DNA of 64,000 nucleotides from Clostridiales bacterium (GTDB lineage: Bacteria > Bacillota > Clostridia > Christensenellales > CAG-138): positions 61,038 to 125,037 of the forward strand of contig SFCQ01000003.1 in NCBI GenBank assembly GCA_004558525.1, written 5' to 3'. The translations under genes were made by a program, and so were the position numbers. Under the pieces are notes generated by a model. That model saw only the letters and a list, made by a program, of their open reading frames with translations, did no database searches and was not told the DNA's origin. How positions within the stretch are numbered: position 1 is the stretch's first letter; each line of letters starts with the position of its first letter. Of the stretch, positions 30,961-31,210 are shown piece after piece.

Positions 30961-30982
30961 AGGACTTGCTTATGCCAAATAC
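30961..30982 (+). repeat. Left copy of the direct duplication flanking repeat copy D
   Basis: AGGACTTGCTTATGCCAAatac versus AGGACTTGCTTATACCAAgtcc at 31183..31204: 17 of the first 18 nt are identical. Confidence 0.75.
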
Positions 30983-31182
30983 CAGAGTGTCGAAAAAACC
31001 TGGAGTTGTTAAGGGGCGGCTGCCCCTTAAGCTTTATTCCGGCTCTGACGGCATGTACGTCAGAACTGATGAAAACCTCTAGGTTTTCGTACCTTGCGGG
31101 TTTTGCCGCCCGGGAGCGGTAGCGAGAGGCAAAACCTGTGAAAACTCGAAAAGTGGCGTTCGGCCACTTTTTCGACACTCTG
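30983..31182 (+). mobile_element. Repeat family copy D (full length, best TIRs)
   Basis: CAGAGTGTCGAAAAA ... TTTTTCGACACTCTG forms a 15-bp perfect terminal inverted repeat. The conserved core is present. Confidence 0.85.
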
Positions 31183-31210
31183 AGGACTTGCTTATACCAA
31201 GTCCTTTTTA
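31183..31210 (+). terminator. pyrG terminator hairpin (right copy of the duplication)
   Basis: AGGACTTG-cttatac-CAAGTCCT followed by TTTTTA. Confidence 0.7.

Follow-up and report, generated by a model that had tools for sequence, protein, structure and literature searches.

A miniature element with IS1182-type ends lies between two copies of the pyrG terminator hairpin in a gut Clostridia bacterium

[quoted passage not shown] The element, copy D, and its surroundings have the following layout, in coordinates of the window:

29319 to 30929, plus strand: pyrG (CTP synthase), the gene whose terminator is the insertion target
30961 to 30982, plus strand: left copy of the target hairpin, AGGACTTGCTTATGCCAAATAC, degenerate, with the 5' arm and the loop kept
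30983 to 31182, plus strand: copy D, a 200-bp non-autonomous element (MITE)
30983 to 30997, plus strand: left terminal inverted repeat, CAGAGTGTCGAAAAA, a perfect 15-mer
31149 to 31172, plus strand: subterminal terminator-like hairpin of copy D, AAAAGTGGCGTTCGGCCACTTTTT, with an A-run before it and a T-run after it
31168 to 31182, plus strand: right terminal inverted repeat, TTTTTCGACACTCTG, a perfect 15-mer
31183 to 31204, plus strand: right copy of the target, AGGACTTGCTTATACCAAGTCC, abutting the right end of the element
31183 to 31209, plus strand: full hairpin of the right copy, AGGACTTG-CTTATAC-CAAGTCCT, with a T-run after it; presumably the pyrG terminator now in use

The gene upstream is a 536-aa open reading frame (29319-30929); the Pfam domains CTP_synth_N and GATase are on record for an identical protein, and a member of its PyrG cluster bears the name CTP synthase [Eubacteriales bacterium]. 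The host is an uncultured gut member of the Eubacteriales. A reading made from the sequence alone had described copy D as bounded by perfect 15-bp terminal repeats and by a flanking duplication in which 17 of the first 18 positions agree and similarity weakens toward 22 nt, with an intact hairpin on the right and only the 5' arm and loop of that hairpin on the left, and our analysis recovered every element of this description. The two flanks are identical at 17 of the first 18 positions and at 19 of 22 overall; by our own arithmetic, the chance that two 18-mers abutting an element match with no more than one mismatch is about 8e-10. Dinucleotide shuffles of the window contained, on average, 0.04 matches to the terminal repeat pair when two mismatches were allowed. 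In the left flank (30961-30982) the 3' arm of the hairpin reads ATAC in place of GTCC, and the left copy, at -2.9 kcal/mol, cannot fold, compared with -11.1 kcal/mol for the right copy together with TTTTT and -13.9 kcal/mol for the hairpin of the empty site described below. All hairpin energies were obtained by direct folding of the hairpins and not from a terminator scan.

Copy D itself folds strongly (z = -7.7), and its subterminal hairpin folds at -16.1 kcal/mol. A comparison of copy D with Rfam gave no match at the gathering score, and a relaxed E-value brought up chance microRNA matches only; with no real match in Rfam, the reading of copy D as a structured RNA gene was dropped. Only one open reading frame overlaps the element, a 156-aa frame with a TTG start on the opposite strand that extends from the 3' end of pyrG to 31322, and we judge that it is not a gene. 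Short, non-coding, 200 bp long and bounded by terminal inverted repeats, copy D has the general make-up of a MITE. BLAST searches of the element against plasmid and phage collections returned no match, and two scans of viral contigs found nothing.

Beyond the insertion, tRNA-Pro and tRNA-Thr lie at 31323-31476 on the strand opposite to pyrG. The minus-strand tRNA-Thr/tRNA-Pro pair has a promoter-like site, GTGACA-17-TATAAT (11 of 12 matches, 31528-31500), and a terminator-like hairpin of its own at 31315-31297, so that two transcription units converge on the stretch that contains the pyrG terminator and the element.

Loci that share the gene record the state of the site before insertion. We compared 10 contigs encoding an identical PyrG, which came from pig and other gut metagenomes and from one NCBI assembly. 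Copy D is present in seven of these loci and absent from three (L008, L010 and L012). Each of the three empty alleles reads CTAAAAGGACTTGCTTATGCCAAGTCCTTTTTACTG at the insertion point, a single hairpin that is intact and keeps its T-run. Their length falls short of the filled allele by exactly 222 bp, the sum of the 200-bp element and a duplication of 22 bp (AGGACTTGCTTATGCCAAGTCC). The half-hairpin seen to the left of copy D is absent from these alleles and hence did not exist before the insertion; as the empty alleles hold one intact hairpin, the left half-hairpin arose as a duplicated copy. An empty allele of copy C from these loci (L006, GTAAAGGGCGGTATAAACCGCCCTTTACCTG) is likewise shorter, by 223 bp, the sum of a 201-bp element and 22 bp. 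At copy D the duplication most likely comprised the full 22 bp, with the 3' arm of the left copy lost later by two substitutions (GTCC to ATAC); an 18-bp duplication with 4 extra bases is a possible alternative.

The hairpin copies differ by a single G/A in the loop, both at copy C and at copy D. We considered this TATG/TATA difference as a mark of the mechanism and dropped it. The empty sites polarise it in opposite directions, toward the left copy at D and toward the right copy at C, which makes coincidence or ordinary mutation the probable explanation. The alleles of copy D (L003-L011, locus coordinates 4665-4864) differ by 0.5-4% despite identical PyrG, and the allele in L007 has an interior patch typical of other copies; the allele differences suggest gene conversion between copies or fast decay.

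Copy D is one of four copies (A-D) in the window, which also contains two fragments, and a hairpin adjoins at least one end of each. The copies elsewhere in the window are 87-92% identical to copy D. The further members are:

6029 to 6262, plus strand: copy A (about 6056-6262), with a hairpin on the left only (6029-6055)
10262 to 10331, plus strand: mini palindromic element (10262-10298), beside a hairpin (10303-10331)
23326 to 23508, minus strand: copy B (23351-23508), with a hairpin (23326-23345) at its right end
27583 to 27827, plus strand: copy C (27605-27805), with 22-bp hairpin copies at 27583-27604 and 27806-27827
55508 to 55586, plus strand: left-end remnant (55532-55586), preceded by a hairpin (55508-55531)

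Copy C lies downstream of the minus-strand gene rplT. Copy A has a degenerate right end, which reaches into the 3' end of a gene on the minus strand, and no duplication is visible there. In copy B the left third is unrelated sequence, and the hairpin GGGACGGCTTCGGCCGTCCC adjoins the right end. The remnant at 55532 follows a hairpin with the arms AGCAGCCG..CGGCTGCT, and the remainder of the element is missing. The mini element of the window, ATGTCGGAAAAGTGGCGCTCAGCCACTTTTTCGACAT, is about 40 bp long and consists of an end repeat, a hairpin and the inverted end repeat; a 45-bp mini form recurs in L025, L034, L069, L083, L109, L130 and L131, where no flanking duplication is seen.

Insertion sites in other genomes and in gut metagenomes reveal what the targets have in common. 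A scan of representative genomes with the conserved core of the element, in a set where the source species is poorly represented, returned two loci, and both copies are flanked by duplicated hairpins that differ in sequence. A scan of metagenome contigs with the right-end hairpin returned at least 120 loci, all of them from gut samples. Among the matches listed there are 42 distinct complete elements, 22 of which carry flanking duplications of 18-26 bp (lengths of 18, 19, 21, 22, 23, 24, 25 and 26 bp were seen), corresponding to 21 distinct sites. Every one of the 21 duplicated targets among the matches listed is a palindromic hairpin of the terminator type, and the targets are mutually unrelated in sequence. 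Most lie between an A-run and a T-run, with the cuts falling within the runs. The duplication is centred on the dyad axis of the hairpin, the left and right offsets being equal at 17 of the 21 sites and differing by at most 2 at the rest; among random positions of the same contigs, 0.5% have a centred stem of at least 7 pairs. Measured from the outermost A-T pair that the palindrome could form, the duplication stops short by 0-4 nt, and by as much as 9 nt in one case.

The sequence-only reading had seen in copies C and D two separate hairpin duplications at unrelated targets and had argued for structure-directed rather than sequence-specific targeting. The existence of an empty allele for each of the two copies upholds the former point, and the latter agrees with 21 unrelated sites that are all hairpins and all dyad-centred, against 0.5% at random. 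Our data thus support a target chosen by structure and not by sequence, with a duplication whose length follows the hairpin. Presence/absence polymorphism, multiple unrelated sites and target duplication are all properties of a MITE.

About 10 of the 42 complete elements among the matches listed have different hairpins on their two sides (among them L024, L032, L036, L041, L053, L059, L093, L114 and L125), and the same holds for the IS copies in L139 and L147-L152. Flanks re-assort between loci; for example, L125 combines the left flank of L058 with the right flank of L079. To judge from the pattern of their flanks, such two-hairpin copies probably arose either by recombination between copies or through chimeric assembly across the 200-bp repeat. 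For IS copies on contigs of 2 kb the two flanking hairpins are unrelated; we regard these cases as untrustworthy, since such contigs cross a multi-copy repeat.

Two further observations concern the contigs. In some copies, those of L091 (about 3500-3536), L132 (about 12165-12201), L118 and L021, the GTTCA loop of the end hairpin has the opposite orientation to the remainder of the element. The metagenome contig L015 contains TCGTCGGCAGCGTCAGATGTGTATAAGAGACAG twice, at 10-42 and at 395-427; we take this to be a Nextera sequencing-library adapter, and it looks like contamination of the deposited contig.

The sequence kinship of the element is with insertion sequences (IS) of the IS1182 family. 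The copy of ISCbo5 on the finished plasmid NC_015418 has the left end CAGGCTGTTGATAAAC, and its right end consists of a terminator-like hairpin followed by TTTTTGAACAATCTGA, an end architecture that is also that of the window element; its flanks carry a 29-30 bp hairpin duplication that is not symmetric on its hairpin. A tblastn search with the ISCbo5 transposase from NC_015418 as query led to a full-length IS in L094 (9985-11685), on a contig that also carries two MITE copies. The 477-aa protein of this IS scores 401.7 bits against the NCBIfam model NF033551, IS1182 family transposase (cut-off 270), and also matches the Pfam families DUF772, DDE_Tnp_1 and DDE_Tnp_1_6; the protein of L153 reaches 386.2 bits with this NCBIfam model (cut-off 270). 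In gut metagenomes this transposase family is very abundant: of 8000 candidates scored, at least 7996 match at E <=1e-30.

At the nucleotide level, the L094 IS agrees over its first 219 nt with a 248-bp MITE family member from L121 (97% identity) and over its first 57 nt with copy D (84% identity). The left terminal repeat of copy D resembles the left ends of the IS1182-family elements in L094, L152 and ISCbo5. The left end of the L152 IS, CGGAGTGTCAAAAAAGTGGCGTTTAGCCACTTTTTTGA, comprises the end repeat and the end hairpin of the element, and the start of this IS, CGGAGTGTCAAAAAAGTGGCGTTTAGCCACTTTTTTGATATAAT, leads from the end repeat and hairpin to a TATAAT box, a ribosome-binding site and the start codon of the transposase. 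The left ends of L152 (201-260), L139, L147, L153 and L154 follow one plan: end repeat, two-way terminator-like hairpin, GATATAAT, ribosome-binding site and transposase start. In the L094 IS, a 190-bp structured leader, which is the interior of the MITE, separates the end repeat from the terminator-like hairpin. The IS of L094 and L152 are autonomous relatives that share their ends with the element, as expected for a MITE, and the relatives encode DDE transposases of the IS1182 type; their genes lie outside the window, within which no transposase gene was found. A side observation concerns L152, where a gene for a Y1 transposase of the IS200/IS605 type (1811-2245) lies directly downstream of the IS1182-type element.

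Full-length IS of this kind also lie between duplicated hairpins. The whole hairpin is duplicated over 24 bp in L146 (AGCACCGGCGCATTTGCCAGTGCA) and over 23 bp in L153 (AATCACCGCATCTGTCGGTGATT), and for the IS copy in L154 the duplication measures only 5 bp and lies at the 3' foot of a hairpin. A full-length IS with the interior of the window subfamily was not found, what is shared being the first 57 nt and the end hairpin only. No further full-length IS turned up when the collected contigs were searched for pairs of end repeats at a spacing of 0.35-7 kb or for palindromic direct repeats at a spacing of 0.35-4 kb.

Judged from these similarities, copy D appears to be a non-autonomous derivative of an IS1182-family IS of gut Clostridia. 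The MITE may have been built from the left end of the IS alone, in which case its second terminal repeat would be the inverted partner across the hairpin, and the 45-bp mini elements would represent the bare form of this design of end repeat, hairpin and inverted repeat. The likeness of the ends, together with the occurrence of MITEs and IS on one contig (L094), suggests that an IS1182-family transposase moves copy D in trans.

We propose that a non-autonomous element derived from the left end of an IS1182-family IS, and mobilised in trans by the DDE transposase, would have its two 3'-OH ends joined to the target, one per strand, at strand-transfer points placed symmetrically at the two feet of the hairpin. 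Gap repair would copy the stretch between the joins and flank the element with two complete copies of the 22-bp hairpin. In the simplest geometry the palindrome would be extruded as a cruciform, the 5' feet of the top and bottom strands would come close to each other at the four-way junction, and closely spaced active sites could make their joins at two positions separated by 18-26 bp of linear sequence. The left copy of the hairpin would later lose its 3' arm. Because the sequence of the target would be irrelevant, the length of the duplication would follow the hairpin, over the range of 18-26 bp across the family.

A cruciform model has been put forward for IS1272 by Wan et al. 2017 (PMC5678879), in which the outcome depends on the point of attack: the stem-loop is replaced if the 3' feet are attacked, as in IS1272, it is duplicated in full if the 5' feet are attacked, and attack at the loops leads to duplication of the loop only. 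By analogy, the MITE family seems to behave as the 5'-foot pathway of that model. We suggest tentatively, as a proposal that falls a little short of being probable, that the transposase reads DNA shape and joins the 5' feet of an extruded cruciform, such that the target hairpin, and not the protein, sets the length of the duplication. If true, the joins would fall on the diagonal strand pair at which a Holliday-junction resolvase cuts, and the choice of feet within one transposase family would lead either to duplication of the hairpin, as here, or to its replacement, as in IS1272.

The sequence data do not separate recognition of a cruciform from recognition of a single-strand hairpin or of duplex DNA, and two other readings with the same parentage have to be weighed against the cruciform. 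The target might be read as a duplex, by a symmetric dimer that recognises an A-tract, a GC stem and a T-tract and makes a long, flexible stagger with no extrusion. At most targets an A-run does stand to the left of the stem and a T-run to its right, with the cuts inside the runs, and the IS1202 family demonstrates that staggers of 16-17 and 27-28 bp set by the protein exist. A fixed protein ruler would, however, yield discrete lengths, as it does in the IS1202 family, whereas the length here varies continuously from 18 to 26 bp and remains dyad-centred whatever the size of stem or loop, and the targets in L052 and L146 have no A/T runs; we consider duplex recognition unlikely. An IS1202-like fixed long duplication was dropped on account of the same continuous variation in length. 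Quite unlikely, in our estimation, is a hairpin formed on single-stranded DNA, for instance while the terminator is being transcribed or on the template of the lagging strand, in place of a double cruciform. Terminators are both transcribed and replicated, which exposes single strands in either case, and the sequence data are equally compatible with a single-strand hairpin and a cruciform; yet duplication of a whole palindrome needs 5'-foot joins on both strands, which is simplest with both strands folded, and with respect to the neighbouring gene either orientation of the element is seen (copy C versus copy D).

A different parentage, and no transposition into the hairpin at all, are much harder to reconcile with the data. 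That an IS30-family transposase of the IS1630 type moves the element was considered in view of the duplications of 19-26 bp (16-26 bp in strain M64) reported for IS1630, a range close to the 18-26 bp found here, and of ISMhom-1, which behaves similarly. We dropped it as very improbable: a tblastn search with the Escherichia coli IS30 transposase gave no match, either in the window or across about 1 Mb of contigs that bear the element, the ends and subterminal sequences of the element match the IS1182 family and not IS30, and the transposase that shares a contig with two MITE copies (L094) is of the IS1182 type. There is next to no chance that the flanking repeats are part of the element or an unrelated local duplication. 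The bare appearance of a single sequence is all that would suggest it, and it is refuted by the empty sites, since the alleles that lack copy D or copy C carry exactly one copy of the hairpin; the flanking repeats, moreover, differ in sequence from site to site. The preferred reading remains that of an IS1182-moved MITE whose target hairpin was duplicated whole.

For pyrG, the insertion has a likely consequence at the transcript level. As the left hairpin copy lacks its 3' arm and T-run, pyrG transcripts probably continue through the element, and, to judge from the hairpins encoded there, they would run for about 200 nt and end at the subterminal hairpin (31149-31172) or at the right copy of the target (31183-31209). 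A consensus terminator scan missed both the 3' hairpin of the element and the right copy of the target, and such a scan is uninformative for two-way terminators because their stems extend into the A/T runs and leave no T-tail. In the IS, the two-way terminator at the left end, placed ahead of the promoter box, would shield the transposase gene from read-through and would restore termination for the host. Restored termination would help to explain why landing in a terminator is tolerated. If the proposed mechanism is true, the element's own two-way terminator would make a landing in a terminator nearly harmless, which would explain the spread of the element through gut Clostridia.

Insertion behind genes, with the terminator restored and coding sequence intact, suggests near-neutrality, and neighbouring genes would gain a structured 3' UTR of about 200 nt. 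The elements can break or mis-join metagenome assemblies at terminators, and they could mislead predictions of terminators or small RNAs. An unnamed, abundant repeat of human and pig gut Clostridia is now linked to the IS1182 family; in the literature searched we found no earlier description of MITEs of this kind or of this gut Clostridia repeat, and one may exist. The filled and empty alleles within one species, together with 21 independent targets, form a clean natural data set for a mode of transposition that has so far only been sketched in the literature, in which a DDE transposase picks terminator hairpins by structure and duplicates them whole. The advance is incremental, because hairpin targeting, variable long duplications and the cruciform model have already been published; new here are the element and its comparative evidence, and the mechanism itself was described previously.

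Intergenic palindromes and hairpins serve as safe sites for several other mobile elements, among them IS that target REP/BIME palindromes (IS1397, ISKpn1 and members of IS110/IS1111) and group IIC introns that target terminator hairpins. These insert in the loop or beside the hairpin, with a short duplication or none, and some are guided by sequence or RNA. To our knowledge, none of them duplicates a whole hairpin. REPs as IS targets are the subject of one report (PMC1525189). The IS1202 family has unusually long duplications in common with the element described here. Those duplications fall into fixed classes of 5-6, 16-17 and 27-28 bp that are tied to transposase subgroups, and hairpin targeting is unreported for the long classes; the lengths of 18-26 bp observed here are not fixed in this manner.

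IS1630 and ISMhom-1, IS30-family elements of Mycoplasma, resemble the element in behaviour only, through inverted-repeat duplications of variable length; their transposase is of the unrelated IS30 type, and their ends have no similarity to those of the element. In a study of 1999, the duplicated repeats of IS1630 were reportedly traced to rho-independent terminators. For IS1630 of Mycoplasma fermentans, a range of 19-26 bp is reported for the duplicated inverted repeats.

Relatives within the IS1182 family come closer. IS1272/TnSha1 of staphylococci, a member of this family, targets terminator hairpins without sequence specificity and deletes part or all of the hairpin, with no duplication, a behaviour termed 'stem-loop replacing' (PMC4923244, PMC5678879). 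The element described here shares with IS1272 the transposase family and the targeting of terminator hairpins; it differs in that it duplicates the whole hairpin where IS1272 replaces it. The preference for palindromes expected of the IS1182 family is seen at all 21 targets, centred palindromes without exception among the matches listed. The closest correspondence is with the ISCbo5/ISBma2 group. ISCbo5 (ISBma2-like) occurs in Clostridium botulinum group III and C. novyi, where all of its insertion sites but one are hairpins at gene ends (PMC3098183). The element and this group share end repeats of the type CAGnnTGTyrAwAAA, insertion into gene-end hairpins and duplication of the hairpin, and in both a terminator-like hairpin follows closely inside one of the ends; unlike the members of the group, copy D has no transposase gene, is 200 bp long and apparently derives from the left end only.
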